Virus record (IMG/VR): IMGVR_UViG_3300030497_000008
Coordinates: 97,392-161,391 of that record
Source of the DNA: a virus
DNA: 64,000 nt
Direction: 5' to 3' (one strand)
Below the pieces are notes generated by a model. The model saw nothing but the letters and a program-made list of their open reading frames with translations, made no database searches and was not told the DNA's origin. Below, in pieces: positions 2,757 to 62,018 of this stretch; positions within the stretch are counted from its first letter, which is position 1; each line of letters starts with the position of its first letter. The translations under genes were made by a program, and so were the position numbers.

Positions 2757-3850
2757 GAAAAAACTTCATCGTATTCGGGGATTTTCACTGGCATAACTTC
2801 ACAAATTTCGCCCGACCGATGATTTTTGATTACAAAGGAAAGCAGATTGAAGTTACTGATAGATTACTAGCACAATGGAACACTATGGAGAAGGTATTCG
2901 AGTTAGCGGACAAGCATAATGCGAATATCATCTTCACTGGTGATTACTTCCATGCACGTAAACGAGTAGAATCAGTAGTGTTCAATATGGGTTTCAATGT
3001 AATTAAAGATAACATGGAGAAACGTGAAGACTTGCATATGTACATGATTGTAGGTAATCATGACCAACAGGATTCTAGTGACTTCCCAGAACATAGTTTA
3101 GAAACATTTAAAGCGATTCCGCGAGTACATATTATGGATGACTTCGAACCAGTACATACAGAGAATGCAGTACTCTACCCGATTTCATATTCTGATAACG
3201 TAGACTTCATCAAGAGCAAGATTGATGAGTTTGCTGCACATGCAGAGACTATTGATAAGGATAAAACACCTATTCTAGTAGCTCACCTCGGAGTAGACGG
3301 TAGTGAAACAGGTCGTCACTCTCACAGACTAGGTGGAGCGTTTAGCTTAGGAGATTTACATCCCCTAGTGTTTGGTTACATAGCTTTAGGACATTATCAC
3401 AAGTGGCAGTTCTTAGAGGATACAGGTACTGCGTTCTATGCAGGTAACACAATCCAAGAGAGCTTCTCAGATGAGGGGCAGGATAAAGGCGTATTCCTTA
3501 TCGATATGGAGAAGTTAGGACATCCTGAGTTTATTCCTATCGAAAATAAGAAGTTTATCACGCTTACAGAGATTGATGAGAATACACAAGAGATTGTGGA
3601 TAATAACTATGTACGAATGATTATTCCACAAGAACTAGCTACAGAGGTAGAGATATTCAAAGAGTCGTCAGATAATCTACGCGTGGAAGTTCAAAAAGAG
3701 TATAAAGCAGACTTACGTATCGATATCAAGGTAGGCTCTGATGAAGCTGATATCGTAAAAGCTTACACAGATATGTTTTTTACAGGTGTACAAGATAAAG
3801 CATTAGCTGTCCTAAAAATGGCGCAGCAACAAAAAGTTGAGGAGGACTAA
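2753..3850 (+). CDS. SbcD/Mre11-like nuclease subunit
   Basis: GDFH, GDYFH, GNHD, AHL, LGHYH metallophosphoesterase motifs; SbcC partner downstream. Confidence 0.92.
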   Translation: MRKNFIVFGDFHWHNFTNFARPMIFDYKGKQIEVTDRLLAQWNTMEKVFELADKHNANIIFTGDYFHARKRVESVVFNMGFNVIKDNMEKREDLHMYMIVGNHDQQDSSDFPEHSLETFKAIPRVHIMDDFEPVHTENAVLYPISYSDNVDFIKSKIDEFAAHAETIDKDKTPILVAHLGVDGSETGRHSHRLGGAFSLGDLHPLVFGYIALGHYHKWQFLEDTGTAFYAGNTIQESFSDEGQDKGVFLIDMEKLGHPEFIPIENKKFITLTEIDENTQEIVDNNYVRMIIPQELATEVEIFKESSDNLRVEVQKEYKADLRIDIKVGSDEADIVKAYTDMFFTGVQDKALAVLKMAQQQKVEED

Positions 3851-3851
3851 C

Positions 3852-4067
3852 GTGGAGTTTAAAATTGGAGATAAATTTGAAGAGTATATATGGGACAACA
3901 AGTCTGGTGACGAAACACCTTATATTTACACCATTTTATTTAGAGCACCTACAGTAGACACTTGGGACGAGCAAGAGTTATTCGTTCGTGTAGACATGGG
4001 GGAAGAGTTCTGGTACACAGCAGTAACAGAAGCGTATTTAGAAGAGAACACGGAGGAGATTAAATAA
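3852..4067 (+). CDS. hypothetical protein
   Basis: GTG start after GAGGAGG RBS. Confidence 0.65.
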   Translation: MEFKIGDKFEEYIWDNKSGDETPYIYTILFRAPTVDTWDEQELFVRVDMGEEFWYTAVTEAYLEENTEEIK

Positions 4068-4651
4068 TGGATAAAAAACGATTAGACGTAATGGTAGATA
4101 TTGAGACTTTAGGGGTAAAAGCAGATTCAACAATCTTTCAAATTAGTGCAGCAGCATTTGATATCGAAACAGGTAATGTAACGTCAGAATGTAATTTTGT
4201 TGCTGATATCGAGGAAGCTGATAACTTAGTTTTAGATGGTAGCACACTTAAGTGGTGGCTTAACACGGATGCAGAGTTATTTAAACGTCTGTTAAACGGC
4301 GGGACACGCTCTCCAGAGATGTTAATCAAAGCATTCCATATGTGGCTAGAACGATTGACATTAAAATACGATGTTCGACTATGGGGTAACGGTATGTTAT
4401 TCGACAACAACATGCTTAAAACGCAAATCGAAGCGGCTGGGTTGAAGTACCCTATCGCGTATAACCGCGACCGTGATGTCCGTACTATCGTAGAGTTAGC
4501 TGCGAAAGTATCGGGAATCTCCGAGAGACAAATTAAAACTATGCATAAAAAGCCTACTGCGATTAAGCATGATGCATACGATGATGTTCATACTCAAATC
4601 AGATACGTTACTTGGTGCTATCAAATTCTAACAAGAACACCAGCACATTAA
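4067..4651 (+). CDS. DEDDh 3'-5' exo(ribo)nuclease
   Basis: DIETLG, WGNG..FD, RDVRT, HDAYDD motifs. Confidence 0.85.
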   Translation: MDKKRLDVMVDIETLGVKADSTIFQISAAAFDIETGNVTSECNFVADIEEADNLVLDGSTLKWWLNTDAELFKRLLNGGTRSPEMLIKAFHMWLERLTLKYDVRLWGNGMLFDNNMLKTQIEAAGLKYPIAYNRDRDVRTIVELAAKVSGISERQIKTMHKKPTAIKHDAYDDVHTQIRYVTWCYQILTRTPAH

Positions 4652-4680
4652 GAGACTATTTTAAATAGTCTCTTTTTTTA
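4650..4680 (+). terminator. intrinsic terminator
   Basis: AAGAGACTATT/AATAGTCTCTT stem followed by T run. Confidence 0.8.
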
Positions 4681-4709
4681 TTGACAAATATATGATACTA
4701 TAGTATAAT
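4681..4709 (+). promoter_or_regulatory. sigma-A promoter
   Basis: TTGACA-N17-TATAAT. Confidence 0.85.
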
Positions 4710-4738
4710 TTAACCATAACGAGAAAAGGAGGAATTTA

Positions 4739-6637
4739 ATGAAGTGGATTAAACTAACCGTACAAAACTTCTTAGCGATTAACGAAGCTACGGTTGATTT
4801 AGATAATCAAGGATTAATCCTTATTGAGGGGGACAACCAGAGCGATGATAAATACGGCAGTAATGGTTCGGGTAAGAGTACATTAATACCTGAGTCAGTT
4901 GCATGGTGTTTATTTAATAAGATTTCTAAAGGGGCTAAAGCAGATGAAGTAGTCAACAATAAGATTGGCAAAGATACTATGGTCTCTTTAGAAGGTGAAC
5001 TAGACGGTGATACATACATAATTACAAGGTACAGAAAACATAGTAAGTTTGGTAATAAAGTAAAGGTGTCTCGTAACGGGACAGACATAACAGCAAAGAC
5101 AGACCCAGATACAAATAAACTTATCGAAAAGCTAGTAGGTGTTTCTCATCTAACATTCTTGAATAGTATTCTATTTGCTCAAGGCGGCGGTCTTGGTGCT
5201 TTTGCATCTTTAACAGACTCTAGCAAGAAAGAAATTCTAGATAGCATTCTAAAACTAGATGTCTACTCGAAGGCGCAAGAGATTGCTAAAGATATAGTAA
5301 AAGAGAGTCAAAAGAAGATTGACGAGAAAAACAAAGAGCTTGAGAAGTTAGACTGGGAGCTGCAACAAGTGGACAGGCTCGAACAGGAAGATATTAATCG
5401 ATATGAGAGTACAAAACAATCACTTGCAGCAGAACGAGTAAATCTAGGAGAAGTCATCAAGCAACAGAATGATTATCCTGCACAGTACTTCGGTTTTGTA
5501 GAGCAGCATCGAGACGAGATAATCAAGTTGAAAGAAAGTTTAGAAGAGATTGCTAACATCGATGTGTCTGTAGAAGAAGAGGCATATTTAGAAGCGTACG
5601 ATAAATTGAACAGTATGTCTAATAAAGAGAAAGAACTTACATATCAGAAGAACCAGCTTGTGAAAAACTACAAGCAATTAGACAGCTCGGATACGTGTCC
5701 GATGTGTGGTAACCCGATTGATACAACACATATCATAACAGAGCAGCAAGGTATTAGAAAGCAGCTTGAGCCAATCGTGTTAGAGTTACGAGAACTCGCT
5801 CAATTAAGAGACCAGTTGATAGCAGACTGTGATACGAAGAAAGCAGCTTATGAAGCTAAGAAAGTAGAGCAAAGTAAAGTTGTTATCAAGCAAAGTAGCA
5901 TACATACAGAAATTCAAAATAAAGAATCATACATACGTACATACGAAAATAATCTACAGAAGCTTAAGCATAATGTAGAGATTGTGAAATCAAATATTGA
6001 AAAGTTAAGCACAGTCACAGAGCCGAAGAAACGTGATGATGAACGTGCAATAATCGAAGAGAAAATTAAAGTAGCTAAAAAAGAACTTGTTGCTCTGGAA
6101 CTCGATAAGAAAGAGAACGAGGACGTTGTTAAAGTATACTCCAATGAGGGAGTTAAGTCTCATGTATTAGACCTGATTACACCAGTATTAAATGAAAAAG
6201 GTAACAAGTACCTAAAACAATTGGCTGGGGAGAACATGGAGCTTGAGTTTAGTACGCGAACACTGAAAAAGGACAAGACATATTCAGATAAGTTCGATGT
6301 TAAACTGATGAACCATGTGGGCGGAGACAATTATAAATTAAATTCAGGCGGCGAACGCAAGCGCGCGGACTTGGCTATCTCTCTAGCATTACAAGATTTA
6401 ATAGCATCACATACAAACTTTATTGTATACGATGAAGTGTTCGATGCGCTAGACGACGTAGGTATCGAATCAGTATTAGAGTTATTAAAAGAACGTGCGA
6501 AGGTTATTGGTACAGTATTTGTTATTACACAAAGCAGCCACTTTAAAGCGTTATTTGAAAAGGTTATTACAATTACGAAGGATAAACACGGAATTTCAAG
6601 AATAAACAAAGGAGATAAAATGGATGAAGGTAATTAA
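4739..6637 (+). CDS. SbcC/Rad50-like ATPase
   Basis: Walker A NGSGKST, coiled coil, zinc hook CPMC, signature SGGE, Walker B VYDEVFD. Confidence 0.93.
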   Translation: MKWIKLTVQNFLAINEATVDLDNQGLILIEGDNQSDDKYGSNGSGKSTLIPESVAWCLFNKISKGAKADEVVNNKIGKDTMVSLEGELDGDTYIITRYRKHSKFGNKVKVSRNGTDITAKTDPDTNKLIEKLVGVSHLTFLNSILFAQGGGLGAFASLTDSSKKEILDSILKLDVYSKAQEIAKDIVKESQKKIDEKNKELEKLDWELQQVDRLEQEDINRYESTKQSLAAERVNLGEVIKQQNDYPAQYFGFVEQHRDEIIKLKESLEEIANIDVSVEEEAYLEAYDKLNSMSNKEKELTYQKNQLVKNYKQLDSSDTCPMCGNPIDTTHIITEQQGIRKQLEPIVLELRELAQLRDQLIADCDTKKAAYEAKKVEQSKVVIKQSSIHTEIQNKESYIRTYENNLQKLKHNVEIVKSNIEKLSTVTEPKKRDDERAIIEEKIKVAKKELVALELDKKENEDVVKVYSNEGVKSHVLDLITPVLNEKGNKYLKQLAGENMELEFSTRTLKKDKTYSDKFDVKLMNHVGGDNYKLNSGGERKRADLAISLALQDLIASHTNFIVYDEVFDALDDVGIESVLELLKERAKVIGTVFVITQSSHFKALFEKVITITKDKHGISRINKGDKMDEGN

Positions 6638-50317: not shown

Positions 50318-51235
50318 ATGGAACAAGTTAAAGAAAAAATCAAACATTACGATTCAATCGTACAAGCTCAGGAAGGTTCAGAGGAAGCCTCCGATTATTT
50401 ATTCGCACAATACAAAGACATGATATGGAACATCATACACCAAGTTTCACCAATCGACAAAGAAGGCGTAAACGAGGACTTATTTCAGATAGGCTCTCTA
50501 GCGTTTGTACAAGCTATCCAAACATTTAATGTAGAGTTAGGTTACGAATTCAGTACATATCTGTATCAATCCATTAAGGGACGTGTTTTAAAAGGGCTAC
50601 GACACAAACAGGATTTGAAAGTCCCTAACGATATTTATAACATATCCATTAGGATACGGAAGAACTATCTCATGGACGAGTCTATAGAGACCATAACGAG
50701 TGTATTAGATATTTCAGAAGAAGATGCTACAAAAGCGATGGACTACTTAAGAGCATCCGCAGCGTTGAGCATGGATACGACAATCGCATCTGATAAAAGT
50801 AACAGCGGTAACGCTGCTATGGTAAGCGAGGCGATTAGTGGAGATTTAAATGGACATAGCTGGGAAGATAGAATCAACCTAAGAGAGTTGGTGGACAAGC
50901 TCCCTGCTAATGAAAAGCATATTATCGCTCGTAAATACTTTGAAGATGCAAAGCGTAGTGATTTATGCGATGAATTAGGGATACATGAGAACACTGTGTA
51001 TAAGATAGAACAGAGAGCTTTAAATAAATTACGAGCATTTATGACGGGTAAAGATACACTCGTGACCAAGAAAGATACACCACGACATACAAGTACAAAA
51101 GCTGCTCGTGAAGAGGCTAAGAAGCTATTAAAAGAAGGTAAGTTATCATATGTACATATTTCTCGTCAAACAGGTGTATCAGAGAATACAATAGCTACGT
51201 GGGCGAGTAAGCTTAGAAAAGGAATTGAAATTTAG
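50318..51235 (+). CDS. SigF/SigG/SigB-like sigma factor with extra C-terminal HTH
   Basis: EDLFQIG, FSTY region 2; region 3 SMD; region 4 LGIHENTVYKIEQRALNKLR. Confidence 0.88.
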   Translation: MEQVKEKIKHYDSIVQAQEGSEEASDYLFAQYKDMIWNIIHQVSPIDKEGVNEDLFQIGSLAFVQAIQTFNVELGYEFSTYLYQSIKGRVLKGLRHKQDLKVPNDIYNISIRIRKNYLMDESIETITSVLDISEEDATKAMDYLRASAALSMDTTIASDKSNSGNAAMVSEAISGDLNGHSWEDRINLRELVDKLPANEKHIIARKYFEDAKRSDLCDELGIHENTVYKIEQRALNKLRAFMTGKDTLVTKKDTPRHTSTKAAREEAKKLLKEGKLSYVHISRQTGVSENTIATWASKLRKGIEI

Positions 51236-52943: not shown

Positions 52944-53010
52944 AGAGAAAACATGGACAAGCATGAGTGTTACATCATTACAATACCACCTAAATAAAGG
53001 AGTAATGATT

Positions 53011-53736
53011 ATGAGCATGTTGAGTTTTATTGGAAGAGGTAGCGCATTTAATACAGAAGAAGGAAACAACAGTGCATATTTTGTACATGAAGGGGAGCTA
53101 ATCCTTATTGATTGCGGCAGTAACATTTTTGATAGGCTAAAAGCTTCTAGGATGTTAGATGTATTCAAAAGAGTGCGAGTGATTATCACACATACACATC
53201 CAGACCATATCGGTTCATTAGGTGATTTAATTTTCTATAACTACTTTAAGATGGGTACGATGGGCGAAAAAGACATCCATGTGTATGCACCTTATACACT
53301 TAAATTAGGTAAGATTCTTCAATTAATGGGAGTCACAACCGACTACTACCATCTACATCAATTCGATAATAATGAGACGATGAGCTTCACTCACAGTAAT
53401 ATCCGATTAACGGCTGTCCCTACTCGACATGTGGACGAGCTAGTAACCTATGGATACTTGATTGATAGACTAGGTACAACCATCTATTATAGTGGAGATG
53501 CAAACAGAATCCCTCATTATATTATGGAAATGTTGGACAATGATGTCATTGATGAGTTTTACCAAGATACGTGTGCAGCTCACTATGAAGGCAATGTACA
53601 CTTCTCTTTGCATAACTTATCCTTAGCGATTACATCACCAGAAATCAGAAAGAAAGTATACTGCATGCACTTAGATGAAGGATTCCCTATCGAGAAGGTA
53701 CAACTTATGGGTTATAATGTTGTAGAAGTAAGTTAG
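53011..53736 (+). CDS. metallo-beta-lactamase-fold hydrolase (Apyc1-like)
   Basis: GSAF..NNSA, LIDCG, THTHPDHIG, YSGD, VH, MH motifs. Confidence 0.8.
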   Translation: MSMLSFIGRGSAFNTEEGNNSAYFVHEGELILIDCGSNIFDRLKASRMLDVFKRVRVIITHTHPDHIGSLGDLIFYNYFKMGTMGEKDIHVYAPYTLKLGKILQLMGVTTDYYHLHQFDNNETMSFTHSNIRLTAVPTRHVDELVTYGYLIDRLGTTIYYSGDANRIPHYIMEMLDNDVIDEFYQDTCAAHYEGNVHFSLHNLSLAITSPEIRKKVYCMHLDEGFPIEKVQLMGYNVVEVS

Positions 53737-55881: not shown

Positions 55882-55914
55882 CAGGCACGGGATATAGTCT
55901 CGTGTCTTTCTTTA
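55882..55914 (+). terminator. intrinsic terminator
   Basis: AGGCACGGGA/TCTCGTGTCT stem followed by T-rich tail. Confidence 0.7.
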
Positions 55915-56016
55915 TGTTCATTTGTCATACTTTTTAAACTTTTTTAATCATAGACAGACATCAAATGTGGGAAAGAGTAATACAATGTATTAAATCAACA
56001 GCAAGGAGGAGTTAAA

Positions 56017-57090
56017 ATGAAAAACAATATCGGGTTATCTGTAGGTGCAGTAGATGATGGGTTTGGAGATGTAAAGGCAGACAATAACGGGAATCCATTC
56101 TTAGTCCCTTCATTCGTAACGAGCTTTAAGAAGAAACCTGAGAACGACTTCGCTACAGATAATCATGGTCAATACATCGCGTGTGAGATTGATGGTAAAC
56201 GCCATACAGTAGGCTGGTACGCATCTAAGCTAGACCCAGACATTGAATGGACTGGAGGAGAGAACAAACATAATGATAAGAATTTTTCGATTATTATGAA
56301 AACAGTGTTAGCTCTTCTAAGTAAAGGAAGTCATGAGACTATCTATACATTGATGATGAACTTACCAATCAAGAACGATACACCAGAGCGTAGAAAGCAA
56401 TTAACAGATATTGTTCGCGGAGTACACGAAGTGAAATTATCTTACGATGGTATTAATTTTATCGATAGAACAATCATGGTTGAAGATGTATGTATAAAAA
56501 AGCAGCCTTTTGGAAGCCTATGTGATGTAATGCTTGATAATAATGGAGAGATTGTTGACCACGATATCGCGAAAGGATTTAACGTGTTAGCAGATATCGG
56601 AGCGAGAACACTTAATGTCCTTACATTAGACTCTCTAGAGGAGCAGCCAGAGCTTACAACACATACAAACGCAGGGATGTATAGTAGCTACCTACAAATT
56701 GGTAAGTACCTTGAGCAGCATCTAGGAGCAGTTATTCCGAACGGCAAACTTCCATTAATCATCCAGAGCCAAGAAATTAAAGGTATGTGCATCAAAGAAG
56801 TTATCAATCAAGCTTATGAGAATCATGCGAATACTATCATGAACACACTTGACAGAATTCTGATTAACTCTTGGTCATTCGTAGATACAGTTATCTTTAC
56901 AGGTGGAGGTTCTGAGTTATTGAAACAGTACTTAGAGGCTCGTTACCGTAATATGGGAGTTAAAGTGCTCTTCTTAGATAGATATTCGAATGTACGAGGA
57001 TTACGTAAATACGGTATTAGACAAAGCGCAAGAGCTCAGAAGGATACCGTAATGATTAAAGTGGGTAGCAATAGCTACAGAAAGGGGTAA
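56017..57090 (+). CDS. ParM/StbA-family actin-like ATPase
   Basis: Phosphate-1 DDGFGDVK, QP connect, phosphate-2 DIGARTLN, adenosine TGGGS. Confidence 0.9.
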   Translation: MKNNIGLSVGAVDDGFGDVKADNNGNPFLVPSFVTSFKKKPENDFATDNHGQYIACEIDGKRHTVGWYASKLDPDIEWTGGENKHNDKNFSIIMKTVLALLSKGSHETIYTLMMNLPIKNDTPERRKQLTDIVRGVHEVKLSYDGINFIDRTIMVEDVCIKKQPFGSLCDVMLDNNGEIVDHDIAKGFNVLADIGARTLNVLTLDSLEEQPELTTHTNAGMYSSYLQIGKYLEQHLGAVIPNGKLPLIIQSQEIKGMCIKEVINQAYENHANTIMNTLDRILINSWSFVDTVIFTGGGSELLKQYLEARYRNMGVKVLFLDRYSNVRGLRKYGIRQSARAQKDTVMIKVGSNSYRKG

Positions 57091-57095
57091 TAGTC

Positions 57096-57374
57096 ATGAG
57101 GAAGTCTGTCTATCTGAGAGAAAAGTTAGATGATGACATCTTGAAAGTGATAGAACCTCTTTTGAAGCATCATAGCTTTGCTCATATCATGCGGGAACTA
57201 GCTAGAGACGGTATCAAATATAGAAGCGGTGCAGGAGTTGTAGCGGTATCACACAAAGTCATACAAAGTACGATACCAGAACAACCGCTACCAACTGCTC
57301 CACTAAAAGAAATCAAATTAACCAAGAAAGAAGCATCTAATGAAGACATAGCAGACAGACTAGATAACTTCTAA
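57096..57374 (+). CDS. ParR-like ribbon-helix-helix adaptor
   Basis: N-terminal strand-helix-helix (RKSVYL...FAHIMRELARDG), flexible linker, C-terminal helix; follows parM. Confidence 0.65.
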   Translation: MRKSVYLREKLDDDILKVIEPLLKHHSFAHIMRELARDGIKYRSGAGVVAVSHKVIQSTIPEQPLPTAPLKEIKLTKKEASNEDIADRLDNF

Positions 57375-57482
57375 ATTCTCGCTAAATTCCGACAAGGGGA
57401 TTAAGGAAAAACAAAACGTTGATTTAACGCTATTTTCCCTAACTGAGTCGGGAAAAACGCTAAATTCCCTGCTATTTTCCCT
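57370..57482. repeat. centromere-like array of GCTAWWTTCCCT repeats
   Basis: Exact copies at 57429, 57459, 57471; degenerate copies at 57370, 57381. Confidence 0.75.
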
Positions 57483-57642
57483 AGTTTACGATACCGTAAT
57501 CGTGGAGAACTTCGAGGATTTTATTTAGCTCCTCCATGTCAATATCGACATCTTTCTTCTCGTTTATTTCATGCAACACCAGATGGTTAACCTTTTGCAT
57601 CTGTCTTTCATACTGAGCTAAAGAATCTGTGAACCAAGACAT
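57481..57642 (-). CDS. antisense small protein, 53 aa (not in track)
   Basis: GAGAGGA RBS; MSWFTDSLAQYERQMQKVNHL...LHDYGIVN; fills the intergenic gap. Confidence 0.6.
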   Translation of the reverse strand: MSWFTDSLAQYERQMQKVNHLVLHEINEKKDVDIDMEELNKILEVLHDYGIVN

Positions 57643-57673
57643 ATAATCATCGTCCTCTCGTGTTTGATAGTTC

Positions 57674-57702
57674 TATCATTACCAAAATAAAATGATTTAT
57701 AC
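57674..57702 (-). promoter_or_regulatory. putative SigF/SigG-type promoter
   Basis: Minus strand GTATA-N14-GGTAATGATA; overlaps palindrome TGATAG-TT-CTATCA (57665-57678). Confidence 0.4.
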
Positions 57703-57719
57703 AAAGGAGCGATAAAATT

Positions 57720-57914
57720 ATGGGTATTGCGGCTGTTAGTGCAGGAATCGCATTAGTTTGTACGACTGGATTGGCTTTGTCAACGGTATTTAAGTTCCTC
57801 CACTCATTCGAAATGGATGTAGGTAATAAGAAGGAAAAGGAACGACGTAATCGTAGAGATGTGAATGAGGAACGTTTCGAGAGTATGGCTAACCGTTCAA
57901 GATTAAACAAATAA
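57720..57914 (+). CDS. small membrane protein
   Basis: AAAGGAG RBS; N-terminal TM and charged tail. Confidence 0.7.
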   Translation: MGIAAVSAGIALVCTTGLALSTVFKFLHSFEMDVGNKKEKERRNRRDVNEERFESMANRSRLNK

Positions 57915-57927
57915 GGGAGCGATTACG

Positions 57928-58458
57928 ATGATTATCAATTACAACGCAAAACACAAAGATGCTTGGGTAGAGTACACACCTTTTAAAAAGGTTCAGATGC
58001 AGGAGGATGCTACGGTTTTTATGTATCAAAATATAAAGGAGGAGATAATGAATGCAACAGGCATGCAGAAGTTAAAAAAGATAAAGCAAGCAAAGAAGAT
58101 AATCAGGATGTCACTGTCAATATTAGGAGCAAGCGCAGGTCTTTCGACGAGAGCCTTTGCAAGTGGAGTGACAGGGAACACACCTCTACTAAGTCCGTTC
58201 AGTCCTTCCGTAATGGTGGAGTACGGACTACAAGTAGCGTTCCTAGCGGTAGGGATAGCAGTCGCACTGAGCATTGTACTATTAGTAATAGCAGGAACAT
58301 TGAGAATGTTCAGAAAAAGCAACGAAGCCAACATGTGGACACAGGATATTATAAAGGGGATAACGCAAGTACTGATAAGCGTTCCGAGTATCTACATCAT
58401 ATACCGAGTAGCAAGTTACTTATTCAGAAATTTAAACTTCTTAAGTCTAGGCTTCTAA
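57928..58458 (+). CDS. pilin/VirB2-like membrane protein
   Basis: Basic N-region, AFA cleavage site, 2 TM helices; second strong RBS start at 58048. Confidence 0.55.
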   Translation: MIINYNAKHKDAWVEYTPFKKVQMQEDATVFMYQNIKEEIMNATGMQKLKKIKQAKKIIRMSLSILGASAGLSTRAFASGVTGNTPLLSPFSPSVMVEYGLQVAFLAVGIAVALSIVLLVIAGTLRMFRKSNEANMWTQDIIKGITQVLISVPSIYIIYRVASYLFRNLNFLSLGF

Positions 58459-59558
58459 AGATTGGAACAATACCAGCAGCAGTTATCTCAACGTTCTTCT
58501 TCACTTCTATAGGAGACAGAGCATACGCGGAAACGATTAGTAATGACTCATTCTTTGACAAAGGTAAGAGCATGTTCTCTGGGTTCATTAAAGATTCGTT
58601 CATGCCCTCTACACCAAACCCAATAAAAGAAGTTATGGATTGGTTCGGGGAGTTTGTGAATCTGATTAAGGATTTACCACACAATATTGTAAAGATGTCC
58701 GCAGAACTATTATCTTGGATATATGACTTATGTGCTGGGCTTATTCTTAAAACACCCTTGTTCTTATTCGATAATGAATGGTTCACAACGATGAGCTTAG
58801 GGTTCAGTGGCGTATCTGTAGGGATTGTAGTTGTACTTACTATTATAGAATGTATCAAGCGTATGTTATCTGGAGCAAATAAGAAGTTAAGACCGATGGA
58901 GTTTACAACAATCATGAAGCGTTGGTCTTTAGTAGCTGGTGTTACTTCCATTACACCTTTCTTATTCAAATCTGCTTTTAAGGTTTTGAATTTCATATCT
59001 GGTAAACTCACAAGCATGGGTAGCGAAATTATGACAGCTAGTGCCTTGACTACTACATTTAGTACGATTGATGTCATCACCTTGTTAGTATTCGATGCGA
59101 TACTGATTTCTACGGTAATCCCGATGCTATGGACAAATGGAAGAAGATTCTTTGACTTACTGGTACTAGGCGTAGTAGCTCCTGTCGCATTATCTTGTTG
59201 GGTATTTGATTCACATAGACATTTCTTCAATCAATGGTGGAGTAACGTAAAGCATTTATCTCTCGTGCAAGTCTACCATTCTCTGTTTCTATTAATAATC
59301 GGATTATTCATTTTTGGTATCCCATTCCCAGCAGACTTCACAGGCACAGTGGTTAAGTTGCTCGTTGTAATCGGAGGATTTGCTCGTATGCAGAACCCAC
59401 CTAAAATTATTGCAAATAAATTAGATAACGGAAAGGGATTAGACGAAGTGATGAAGAGTAATGTGAAAGAGACATCTAAAAAGTTAATTAAGAACTTTGC
59501 GATGTCAAAAGCTACAATTTTAAGTCCGCTAACGTTATTTAAGAAAATTAAAAAATAA
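58335..59558 (+). CDS. polytopic membrane protein, VirB6/TrbL-like (start uncertain)
   Basis: 6-7 TM helices; RFFDL...APVALSCW...FFNQWW resembles the VirB6 core. Confidence 0.6.
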   Translation: MDTGYYKGDNASTDKRSEYLHHIPSSKLLIQKFKLLKSRLLKIGTIPAAVISTFFFTSIGDRAYAETISNDSFFDKGKSMFSGFIKDSFMPSTPNPIKEVMDWFGEFVNLIKDLPHNIVKMSAELLSWIYDLCAGLILKTPLFLFDNEWFTTMSLGFSGVSVGIVVVLTIIECIKRMLSGANKKLRPMEFTTIMKRWSLVAGVTSITPFLFKSAFKVLNFISGKLTSMGSEIMTASALTTTFSTIDVITLLVFDAILISTVIPMLWTNGRRFFDLLVLGVVAPVALSCWVFDSHRHFFNQWWSNVKHLSLVQVYHSLFLLIIGLFIFGIPFPADFTGTVVKLLVVIGGFARMQNPPKIIANKLDNGKGLDEVMKSNVKETSKKLIKNFAMSKATILSPLTLFKKIKK

Positions 59559-59570
59559 GGAGAGGTTCTT

Positions 59571-59684
59571 ATGGGTATCACAACACTGATTTTACTGAAT
59601 ACAACGATGTTATTGGCAACTGCTGCTGTGAATGCTGTGCAATGTGTAATCATTATGAAGGAGTTGAAGCATCGTGAAGAATAG
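59571..59684 (+). CDS. 37-aa membrane peptide (not in track)
   Basis: AAGGAGAGG RBS; MGITTLILLN...; overlaps the FtsK start. Confidence 0.6.
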   Translation: MGITTLILLNTTMLLATAAVNAVQCVIIMKELKHREE

Positions 59685-61932
59685 AGGATATAGAAACATA
59701 TCGAATTACTTCTCTCAAGTAGAGGATGTACCAAAGGCACTCAACCATATCCTACAGACAGATACAGATGGTGTGTTCGGTTTAGAGGTAGAACTATTTA
59801 AAGGTGGGCGTAATATTACAGTTGTTACGCCTCCCCAGATTCGTTTTGATGAGACAAATGTTTTACCGTATCGTTTAACACTCCTGTCTAGGCGTACAGA
59901 CGACGTGTATGCTTATGAAGGTTATTTATCTAGACCGAGTTTCTTACCGTTGTATGGAGGTATGAAGGGCTTATTCTTAAAAGAATTGCTGGAGATACAA
60001 GTGAGGGATGATGAAGTTATAGAAATACAGTGGTTGTTCAAGAAATATGTGGATGATTGGTTGATGACATCTATTGATAGATATCGCAGTTACTTGGCTG
60101 GTAATGATTATCCTGCTGGAACGAAAATAGGGAGAAGGTTTCAAGATAAGATACTCCATACGATTAATAAATTGTCATCCTTTGATATGGCTCGAACATA
60201 TAGTGAGAAAGTGGAACAGAAGATTATCGGTAATGTGTTCAAATTTAAACTAGGAGTTACGATTCGTTCTAAAGAGCCTTCAACGCTCGTACAGCAGCTA
60301 GAAACGATATTCCGTAAATATGACTCACATAATTCATTAAGCCTCTACAAACGCAAGATAAAGGGCTTAAAAGATGAATATGAGGAAAGGCTTGTAATGA
60401 ATGGAGACAATGTACTAAGTGATGTGGAAATCGTATCCTTACTAGGAGGGAACGTAGTAGCTCCTCACAAAGAGTTGACTGTTGTTCCTGATAACACTGA
60501 ACAGGTTGTAGCAAAGAAAGGCACACCTAGTAAGAATATCGGAGGACTTGTTGAGGTGCTGCCTACATATCCACGAGAAGAAGTGAAAGTTGATGAGAAT
60601 ATTGTACCCGCTATAGCAGAAGCTATGAAGCGTGTAGGACTTATTAAACGAGCGCAGCTAACAAGTAGTTATATCACTTCGGGTGTGCGGTTAACTGTTG
60701 TTCAATGTGATATCCCTAAGAATAAGAATTTAAGTCATTTGCGCTCCAAGGCGACCGATATTCAAGCGGCTCTAGGTGTACCTTCCCTTAGTATAGAACA
60801 AGGAGACGAACCTGATACTGTTAAATTTACCCTTCCGAACGAAGAACCTTCTATTATAAGCTTACGGGAGTTATTAGAAGATGAACGATTTCAAGAATAT
60901 GCACTGGATAATGACCTCCCATTCGTTGTAGGTGTGAATGAAATTGATGAACCGATATACTTATCCCTTAGTAAGCTCGTGCATCTCATGATTGCGGGTA
61001 CAACTGGTTCTGGTAAATCAGTGTTCTTGAATGCTTTGATTGTTAGTTTAATGGCTTCTACGCCTCCAGAACTATTACAATTCTTTATGATTGACCCTAA
61101 GATGGTGGAGTTAGCTCACTATGAGGGTATGGCGCATGTGGCAAAAGTAATTACAAATATGGAGAAGGCAGGAGAAACCTTAAGCCGTTTAACAATAGAA
61201 ATGGATAACCGATACAAAGTATTCAAGGAGCAGGGAGTTAAGAATATCAAACTGTACAATGAAGTTGCAGAAGAGAAGATGCCATATCTCGTATGTGTGA
61301 TTGATGAGTATGCGGACTTATTCGATGTAAACTCAGCAGTAGAGACGTATGTGACTCGCTTAGGGCAGAAAGCTCGTGCAGCAGGAATTCATTTAGTTAT
61401 CGCTACCCAGAGACCAGACTCGAAGGTTATCAGTGGACGTATTAAAACAAATGTACAGAATGCCATCAGTTTCAATTTAAATAGTAATACGAACTATCGT
61501 ACGGTATTCGGGAAAGGGATTGACTACACGCTTATGGGGCGTGGGGATGGTGTCATGAAAATAGAAGGATACCCAAAGGAATTCCAAAGGTTTCAAAGTG
61601 CTATTGTATCTCCTAATGAATCTAAAGAAGGAGAAGTATTCCATACGATTAAAGAATACTTTGGTGAAGTAGCAGACCACGAAGAGCCAGATAATGACGA
61701 TGAGGCTACAGAGGATGAGCCATTAGTTAAATTGAAGAAGATTATCGCTCGTACAAGAGAAACAAAGGTTGGTAGATTGCGAGAGCTTATGGAGATTAAG
61801 GCAGAGGTATTGACTGAGCTGATGGGGCAGTTAGTGGAGGAAGGTTGGCTTATCAAGCATGCATCTAAGGCGAAAGGCTATGAGCTTATTATTCCAGATG
61901 AGATGTTAGATAAATATAAAGGAGATTGGTAA
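59674..61932 (+). CDS. FtsK/SpoIIIE-family DNA translocase
   Basis: HLMIAGTTGSGKS, IDPKMVEL, VIDEYADL, ARAAGIHLVIATQRP; C-terminal winged helix. Confidence 0.93.
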   Translation: MKNRGYRNISNYFSQVEDVPKALNHILQTDTDGVFGLEVELFKGGRNITVVTPPQIRFDETNVLPYRLTLLSRRTDDVYAYEGYLSRPSFLPLYGGMKGLFLKELLEIQVRDDEVIEIQWLFKKYVDDWLMTSIDRYRSYLAGNDYPAGTKIGRRFQDKILHTINKLSSFDMARTYSEKVEQKIIGNVFKFKLGVTIRSKEPSTLVQQLETIFRKYDSHNSLSLYKRKIKGLKDEYEERLVMNGDNVLSDVEIVSLLGGNVVAPHKELTVVPDNTEQVVAKKGTPSKNIGGLVEVLPTYPREEVKVDENIVPAIAEAMKRVGLIKRAQLTSSYITSGVRLTVVQCDIPKNKNLSHLRSKATDIQAALGVPSLSIEQGDEPDTVKFTLPNEEPSIISLRELLEDERFQEYALDNDLPFVVGVNEIDEPIYLSLSKLVHLMIAGTTGSGKSVFLNALIVSLMASTPPELLQFFMIDPKMVELAHYEGMAHVAKVITNMEKAGETLSRLTIEMDNRYKVFKEQGVKNIKLYNEVAEEKMPYLVCVIDEYADLFDVNSAVETYVTRLGQKARAAGIHLVIATQRPDSKVISGRIKTNVQNAISFNLNSNTNYRTVFGKGIDYTLMGRGDGVMKIEGYPKEFQRFQSAIVSPNESKEGEVFHTIKEYFGEVADHEEPDNDDEATEDEPLVKLKKIIARTRETKVGRLRELMEIKAEVLTELMGQLVEEGWLIKHASKAKGYELIIPDEMLDKYKGDW

Positions 61933-61979: not shown

Positions 61980-61992
61980 AGTAAGAAAACGA

Positions 61993-62018
61993 GGGAGGCT
62001 CTTCGGGGTTTCCTTTTT
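61993..62018 (+). terminator. UUCG-loop terminator-like hairpin
   Basis: GGAGGCTC-TTCG-GGGTTTCC followed by T run. Confidence 0.6.

Follow-up and report, generated by a model that had tools for sequence, protein, structure and literature searches.

A candidate relaxase-free, FtsK-driven DNA transport block in a Bastille-like Bacillus phage

Introduction

Why do large lytic Bacillus phages keep genes for a ParM-type filament and an FtsK-type motor, and how do they enter spores? Genome notes on related Bacillus phages list both, as an earlier note on the present DNA had mentioned, and call their retention unexplained (PMC3853049). We studied a block of genes that holds both, at positions 56017–61932 of a 64-kb stretch of viral DNA (the window, to which all coordinates refer), which is the final part of the 161-kb IMG/VR record IMGVR_UViG_3300030497_000008. 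By sequence, the virus is a Bastille-like myophage of the Bastillevirinae, very near phage Bastille (97% identity over the N-terminal domain of the motor).

The earlier note had proposed that the block encodes a relaxase-free pump moving phage DNA across a membrane. This is still the reading that we rank best, transport itself being a prediction, and it has a published precedent. In the lytic phage 0305phi8-36 (orf200–207) and in SPO1 (gp27.3–27.9), Pathria et al. (2012) described a DNA translocation operon with a relaxase, a VirD4-like ATPase, VirB6 and an actin; deleting it caused no phenotype under laboratory conditions (PMC3357382). Our comparisons suggest that the block in the window is a relaxase-free, FtsK-driven sister of this predicted system, and that it probably transports double-stranded DNA (dsDNA) across a membrane, whatever the destination.

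The motor

The motor gene (59674–61932, plus strand, as for all genes below unless stated) specifies a VirB4-like N-terminal domain (residues 1–260), an FtsK ATPase domain (about 290–660) and a C-terminal winged helix. The model of the N-terminal domain (predicted local distance difference test, pLDDT, 86) has an alpha/beta fold. Its best match by VIA was TrwK/VirB4 37–397 (Z 12.0, root-mean-square deviation (rmsd) 3.3, 208 residues aligned), and Foldseek also returned VirB4 (probability 0.89). The ATPase domain matches FtsK at E 4e-49 in Pfam and at E 2e-53 in a further FtsK search and has intact Walker A and B motifs; the motor scores far higher against FtsK than against TraD/VirD4 models. 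The C-terminal end is a conserved winged helix (winged helix-turn-helix families), and no membrane helix was seen in the protein (hydropathy maximum 1.46). Model and alignments together indicate that the motor is a chimera of a VirB4-like N-terminal domain, an FtsK ATPase and a winged helix. A separate VirB4 was not found in the genome, where an AAA_10 search returned only the motor itself. Nor was a Replic_Relax relaxase found, in a search that covered this family, the one of the sister operon, and not other relaxase families. The system had been called relaxase-free and VirB4-free; this holds in so far as neither Replic_Relax nor a separate VirB4 was detected, and needs amending for the VirB4-like domain of the motor.

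The second VIA match of the N-terminal domain was an ESX-3 subunit (Z 7.9), and type VII secretion is driven by FtsK-fold ATPases. Both points would suit a machine that secretes proteins or remodels the host membrane in a type VII- or effector-like manner, with the FtsK domain serving as a protein translocase. We regard this as the least probable reading of all, as the single ATPase domain is closest to DNA-pumping FtsK and comes with an alpha domain and the conserved winged helix, while DNA repeats and partition genes are linked to it and no substrate genes were seen.

The membrane proteins and a predicted frameshift

The polytopic membrane protein, whose frame is open from 57987 to 59558 with the conserved part starting at 58455, had been likened to VirB6, and four lines now agree with this. 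The top seven Foldseek matches of its model (pLDDT 70) were all VirB6 of R388 (E 0.002). By VIA, VirB6 was the best among 48,161 chains (Z 10.4, rmsd 4.8, 236 residues aligned), followed by DotA at 7.5. Its Atlas neighbours are TrbL clusters, the TrbL_4 family is matched by 18 of 113 homologs, and its profile reaches VirB6 genes in complete clostridial loci of type IV secretion systems (T4SS). A lone Z score between helical bundles would be weak support; with fold and profile in agreement, the protein is most simply read as VirB6-like. Among canonical T4SS, the phage VirB6 has its nearest relatives in clostridial loci resembling integrative and conjugative elements (ICEs; L070–L074), which have a ParM-like gene, a relaxase-like gene, VirD4, an 80-amino-acid pilin, VirB6, VirB3, VirB4 and a lytic enzyme.

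Directly upstream lies the gene for a 176-amino-acid pilin-like protein (57928–58458). In the alignment it shows an N-terminal extension, a signal-peptide-like segment ending in A-x-A and a hydrophobic hairpin, and it lies where the earlier note had placed it. Its similarity to VirB2 is weak: the T4SS_pilin profile gave E 0.53 for the window protein, 0.008 in 3 of 30 relatives and 0.001 for orf204 of 0305phi8-36, and the TrbC profile gave E 0.003 for a Niallia homolog. A relation to the clostridial pilins was tried by hhalign and hmmsearch and dropped, as a reversed control scored better. Two small hydrophobic proteins complete the membrane set. DUF7394 (57720–57914; Pfam E 9e-13) has, by alignment and hydropathy, a single membrane helix and a basic tail, and a 37-amino-acid peptide (59571–59684; phrog_4802) overlaps the start of the motor gene and is absent from some distant loci. 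Either could be a counterpart of VirB3, and no VirB3 similarity was seen in them.

At 58455, where the conserved part of the VirB6-like reading frame sets in, the codon is CTA and not a start, and no start codon is conserved there in relatives. A GTG at 58335 had been annotated as the start; we discarded it, as it arises from a conserved Trp codon in the pilin frame. In 65 of 66 loci VirB6 lies in the −1 frame relative to the pilin-like gene, and its frame is open for 394–712 nucleotides upstream in all loci but the relaxase-type L044. Synonymous resampling yielded such an open frame in <4% of draws for 45 of 46 loci. At the start of the overlap, the sequence T-TTY stands 6–8 codons before a Shine-Dalgarno (SD)-like site in 60 of 64 loci, compared to 22% for control Phe codons. 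In the window this predicted signal spans 58016–58042, with a T-TTT run at 58016–58020 and the SD-like AAGGAGG seven codons downstream at 58036–58042; a shift at the run would give a predicted VirB6 product of 543 amino acids. Because VirB6 lacks a start of its own, its frame is open upstream and the slip signal is conserved, we propose that translation passes from the pilin-like gene into VirB6 by a conserved −1 frameshift. The shift would be ribosomal, and pausing of a ribosome at the SD-like site further downstream may help it.

The relaxase-bearing sister operon

Gene by gene and in the same order, the block is homologous to the 0305phi8-36 operon, down to the position of a reverse-strand gene and a small peptide. 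E values were 8e-38 for the actin, 7e-8 for the ribbon-helix-helix (RHH)-like adaptor (orf206), 3e-25 for the pilin-like protein, 9e-70 for VirB6 and 1e-24 for the N-terminal domain of the motor. In 0305phi8-36 this same N-terminal domain is followed by a VirD4/TraG-like part and then by a Replic_Relax relaxase, and L044 is of the same type. The block in the window instead has an FtsK ATPase with a winged helix, a repeat array, the pilin–VirB6 frameshift signal and a forespore-type promoter, and no Replic_Relax was found. That sister operons pair one N-terminal domain either with a VirD4-like motor and Replic_Relax (0305phi8-36, L044) or with FtsK and repeats would be expected of a machine for DNA transfer. 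In addition, three inner-membrane parts of a T4SS in one unit (VirB6, the VirB4 N-terminal domain and the pilin-like protein), as far as models and profiles identify them, count for an export machine.

The repeat array

The array (57381–57481) holds four direct copies of GCTAWWTTCC(C) and inverted GGGA(A/T) copies. All four genome copies of GCTAWWTTCC fall inside it, compared to about one expected genome-wide. In the window the array adjoins parR. Arrays in relatives are built alike, inverted copies following direct ones, and their cores vary by lineage (TTCCC, TTACCC, TTACTC and TCTCCC). The array is retained in loci without this adaptor, those with TubZ among them, and it stays next to the reverse gene where an HNH gene has been inserted after parR. 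Its sequence differs among phages that share the adaptor strand (L014 and L018; L025 and L028), and one array type is common to a TubZ locus (L140) and an actin locus (L141) that have like motor helices. Because the array goes with the motor and persists across both adaptor classes, we favour it as a candidate loading site of the clt type, as used by TraB, over a parC.

Two further ideas were rejected. The rule that N/D in helix 3 leads to TACC repeats applied to four lineages and to L134, L138 and L139 and failed in L121, L140 and L028 (p 0.25), and a KOPS-like genome-wide polarity, with a 22:1 skew in this genome, was not repeated in four relatives. A separate motif, A(A/G)AGTA(A/T)TACA, occurs at 55974–55984 and 57265–57276 and is repeated before parM in relatives. 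The copy inside the adaptor gene coincides with conserved QSNT codons, and the motif is a candidate operator of the adaptor or the true parC.

The filament slot

The actin-like ATPase (56017–57090; phrog_691) matches Pfam ALP_N (E 5e-15) and MreB-like_C (E 1e-21). Its closest solved structure is 3js6, a ParM (E 7e-10), and it matches the ParM model NF010498 at E 1e-21 with a score under the model cut-off; on these similarities it belongs to the ParM group. The next gene (57096–57374; phrog_3536) encodes a 92-amino-acid protein that had been called an RHH adaptor. Its alignment shows a strand-helix-helix pattern, a linker and a conserved acidic C-terminal helix, and no match was obtained in Pfam or PDB searches; we keep it as a putative, ParR-like RHH adaptor.

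In related loci the same slot is filled by TubZ with a winged-helix adaptor (L043, L067, L068, L117, L121, L134, L138–L140 and L144) or by other actins with other adaptors (L036, L039, L045, L120, L125 and L141), and it holds no filament gene in the plasmid and phage loci L003–L006, L042 and L111. That unrelated filament systems have repeatedly filled one slot argues for a functional coupling with the membrane module. The empty slots show that this coupling is not obligatory. They would also fit a partition system and a membrane/FtsK relic that are unrelated and merely travel together, as would the reverse gene and the HNH or M23 insertions lying between the two halves. We consider such a chance pairing very unlikely, since recruitment to this slot happened separately for TubZ and for at least three actin lineages, and all genes of the block are intact and under constraint, the double reading frame of 150 codons included.

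The tight link to filament systems can also be read in another way. The membrane proteins might anchor the FtsK motor, which together with ParM would position or clear genomes at the vegetative septum (in a carrier state, in the segregation of chains or at a replication site), with no crossing into another cell or compartment. Prophage actins such as AlpC are known to support the replication of phage DNA at the membrane, and the motor is closest to cellular FtsK. An anchor of this kind needs neither a VirB6 fold, nor a pilin-like subunit with conserved control of stoichiometry, nor the relaxase of the sister operon, whose deletion had no effect on growth (PMC3357382). This reading therefore appears rather improbable to us.

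The reverse gene, promoters and sigma factor

Between the array and DUF7394 lies a gene on the minus strand (57481–57642; phrog_5065, E 2e-33), conserved to the same degree as the other genes of the block, for a soluble protein of 53 amino acids that has homologs in most loci and no Atlas match. It is preceded on its strand by a forespore-type promoter (57674–57702, minus strand; GTATA-14-GGTAATGATA) that agrees at 11 of 12 positions with the sigma F/G type (shuffle p 0.007). Perfect GTATA-17/18-CATACTA (12/12), which we take to be the sigma G consensus, stands before the reverse gene in eight related loci; in the whole of genome G000 such a match occurs once. Of 24 further loci (lytic, temperate or plasmid-borne), among which is the window, 17 have a sigma F/G-type site at the reverse gene (p<0.05). 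In the temperate and plasmid loci L134, L138–L141, L067, L003 and L005, an extra open reading frame of about 30 amino acids precedes the reverse gene and a divergent 140-amino-acid helix-turn-helix (HTH) gene precedes DUF7394; the Bastillevirinae have neither.

The search for a sigma-A promoter in front of the block, which had been reported missing, gave none above chance (best site 9/12; 42 sites found compared to 50.6 expected). A candidate non-sigma-A promoter of parM (55954–55986; ACAGRCA-N18-CATA) is kept in many Bastillevirinae and is weak in the window (8.9 bits compared to 19–29 in the training sites). Its −10 element is sigma E/K-like; an assignment to sigma E was dropped, as textbook scoring was not above shuffles. 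A matrix from the parM promoters of relatives found no intergenic family of sites in this genome, and therefore the motif is not a general class of phage promoter.

A sporulation-type sigma factor had been noted about 5 kb upstream of the block. There is a divergent gene of the SigB/F/G family at 50318–51235, the sole member in the genome, with an extra C-terminal HTH (residues about 255–303), and its product could read sigma F/G-type sites. As evidence for the forespore it is weak: in several relatives tblastn found no match to it within 10 kb, and divergent phage sigma factors have little effect on host sporulation genes (PMC9429907). A metallo-beta-lactamase-fold hydrolase with a THxHxDH motif (52963–53736) is conserved upstream in close relatives only.

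Boundaries and spread of the block

The earlier picture of one terminator-bounded block is right as to its flanks. A terminator-like hairpin closes the upstream unit (55883–55907; 11-bp stem, T tail, −14.4 kcal/mol), and folding gives another 3′ of the motor gene (61991–62016). The actin-like ATPase, repeat array, two tiny hydrophobic peptides and FtsK motor were all recovered within them, where they had been placed. The reverse gene, with its own ribosome site and promoter, had been overlooked; with this conserved minus-strand gene in its midst, the block is more than a simple operon and has at least two directions of transcription. The start of the record repeats window sequence from about 62334, and therefore its ends overlap by about 1.6 kb.

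The genes occur together across genomes, as had been anticipated: the order ParM, adaptor, (insertions), reverse gene, DUF7394, pilin-like protein, membrane protein and motor is the same in 30 of 32 IMG/VR loci. Phage records with the membrane protein number 146, as do those with a full-length motor, and 144 are named Bacillus phages; the recorded hosts of phages Xoo-sp15 and f2b1 are non-Bacillus. A survey against phages of non-sporulating hosts had been suggested. Among sequenced phages the module was restricted to Bacillus-type records, and the searched collection gave no example from a phage of a non-sporulating Firmicute. Prophage-like chromosome regions have the membrane half too (3 of 401 genomes of the order), and it occurs on further large phage contigs as well as on megaplasmids of Bacillus that are typed as non-mobilizable.

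Several side observations concern these loci. Plasmid L006 (CP053689) is labelled Arthrobacter citreus, yet it has a Bacillus-type module and a spore protein gene, and the label is possibly wrong. Small acid-soluble spore protein genes lie near the module on two plasmid-like elements (L006, 12447–12647, annotated; L111, 4487–4696, by eye), and the Niallia plasmid L004 has an SdpABC sporulation-delay locus at 2989–5111, near the module. HNH endonuclease genes have been inserted repeatedly between genes of the block, none of which is disrupted (L001, 8113–8838; L002, 4034–4597; L013, L037, L140 and L141). In L021 (8548–9126), L031 (8373–8993), L041 (8507–9058) and L138 (7834–8433), an M23 peptidase gene stands between the array and the reverse gene, its 3′ end overlapping the latter, and in Atlee such a gene is placed after the motor. 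Many relatives have an M23 hydrolase within the block; a genome search found none in the virus of the window.

These distributions bear on where the DNA would go. The same machine could pass phage DNA, free of virions, to a neighbouring or sibling cell, like TraB/clt in Streptomyces. All membrane parts appear to derive from conjugation systems, and the nearest distant homologs of VirB6 stand in complete clostridial T4SS loci, directly behind the pilin. The block often includes an M23 peptidase and is carried by plasmids typed as non-mobilizable. Moreover, minimal FtsK-based transfer exists (PMC13492992, PMC4447253), and for the relaxase-bearing sister operon spread in biofilms was proposed by Pathria et al. 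(PMC3357382). We nevertheless judge transfer to a neighbour unlikely, if the most serious rival. No wall hydrolase or VirB8 was seen in the block (VirB8 was not searched for) and M23 is absent from the genome, a forespore-type promoter is conserved within the block, and the module was not found in phages of non-sporulating Firmicutes within the searched collection.

Discussion

Our preferred answer is a reduced, conjugation-derived machine that would move intact phage dsDNA, mainly at host sporulation, into the forespore; we give it somewhat less than an even chance, and more than any other destination. The conserved gene order in viral, prophage and plasmid loci counts for it. The forespore-type promoter that the reverse gene has in loci of all three kinds (lytic, temperate and plasmid) and the Bacillus-type-only occurrence among phage records point towards the forespore, and the lack of an M23 wall hydrolase in the genome fits passage through a thin septum better than through two vegetative walls. 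That lytic Bacillus phages form virospores has been described (PMC12991052).

In such a machine, ParM and its adaptor would carry or hold genomes near the pole or septum, by analogy with ParMRC. Many pilin-like and few VirB6 subunits, in a ratio set by the −1 frameshift, would form the membrane part, onto which the motor would dock through its VirB4-like domain (the fold is modelled, the docking taken over from R388). The winged helix might load on the repeat array in the way in which TraB uses clt, and dsDNA would then be pumped by the FtsK ring without a relaxase. Once DNA is in the forespore, sigma F/G could switch on the reverse gene, as the promoter match suggests. Its RNA would be antisense to the repeats and parMR; as a guess, the product might turn off the pump or the lytic programme. 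A fuller version, in which a phage-owned, sporulation-timed pump couples the VirB4-domain/FtsK chimera to a pilin–VirB6 channel set by a new type of −1 frameshift, with private repeats, spore entry independent of SpoIIIE and an arrival switch expressed in the forespore, is possible and more doubtful than forespore delivery as such.

Several points weigh against delivery to the forespore. Host SpoIIIE already entraps phages such as phi29, and a private pump may not be needed. The M23 peptidase inside the block of many relatives would fit cell-to-cell transfer, and the homologous operon of 0305phi8-36 encodes a relaxase and showed no forespore-type site in front of the actin gene. The confinement to Bacillus hosts, moreover, also reflects descent. 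The sigma F variant of the forespore promoter consensus was added after the data had been seen. This promoter drives the reverse gene and not the machine, a phage sigma factor might read the sigma F/G-type site, and scoring matched the parM promoter, that of the machine, to no sigma factor. Finally, the covariation of repeats and motor helix has exceptions (L121, L140 and L028) and too few independent pairs (p 0.25).

If the prediction is true, lytic phages own a virion-free transmission route into spores or neighbours, which would change the view of their persistence in soil and food and of the phage biocontrol of spore-formers. It would also provide an evolutionary link between T4SS and FtsK/TraB dsDNA transfer, with relaxase-bearing and relaxase-free versions of one scaffold. 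The block offers targets that can each be deleted in B. subtilis phages: its named genes, the site, the promoter and the frameshift.

Comparison with known systems

TraB and clt transfer dsDNA in Streptomyces (PMC4447253), and minimal FtsK-based transfer is represented, for example, by pELF2 (PMC13492992). The block resembles both in its FtsK-type motor with a C-terminal DNA-recognition domain, short direct repeats nearby, accessory membrane proteins and, as far as the Replic_Relax search goes, the lack of a relaxase. Unlike TraB, its motor has no membrane helices of its own and has a VirB4-like domain, its partner is a true VirB6 homolog, and the system is linked to a filament and borne by a phage. 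With the inner-membrane core of T4SS (TrwI/VirB6 and TrwK/VirB4 of R388; pilin–VirB6–VirB3–VirB4 of clostridial ICEs) it shares the VirB6 fold, the VirB4 N-terminal fold and a pilin-like gene directly 5′ of VirB6. It differs in having a dsDNA motor instead, with no VirB4 ATPase, VirD4, VirB8 or relaxase seen (VirB8 was not searched for, and the relaxase search was for Replic_Relax).

The alpha-beta motor, Walker motifs and C-terminal winged helix are those of cellular FtsK/SpoIIIE, whereas the membrane domain is lacking and a genome-wide polarised motif of the KOPS/SRS type was not found in relatives. As in ParMRC (type II) and TubZRC (type III), a filament NTPase stands beside a small DNA-binding adaptor and repeats. 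In contrast to these systems, a change of adaptor class leaves the repeats as they are, so that they may not be a centromere, and the filament is tied to a translocase.

By analogy, the block would work like TraB/clt on a T4SS-derived scaffold; it is a member of neither family because defining parts of each are missing. Its closest described relative is the 0305phi8-36 operon, in which the pilin, RHH and VirB4 domain had not been identified (PMC3357382). The FtsK-type block was not found described as a system in the literature. New here are the homology map to 0305phi8-36, the exchange of ParM and TubZ, the link between repeats and motor, and the numbers for frameshift and promoter.

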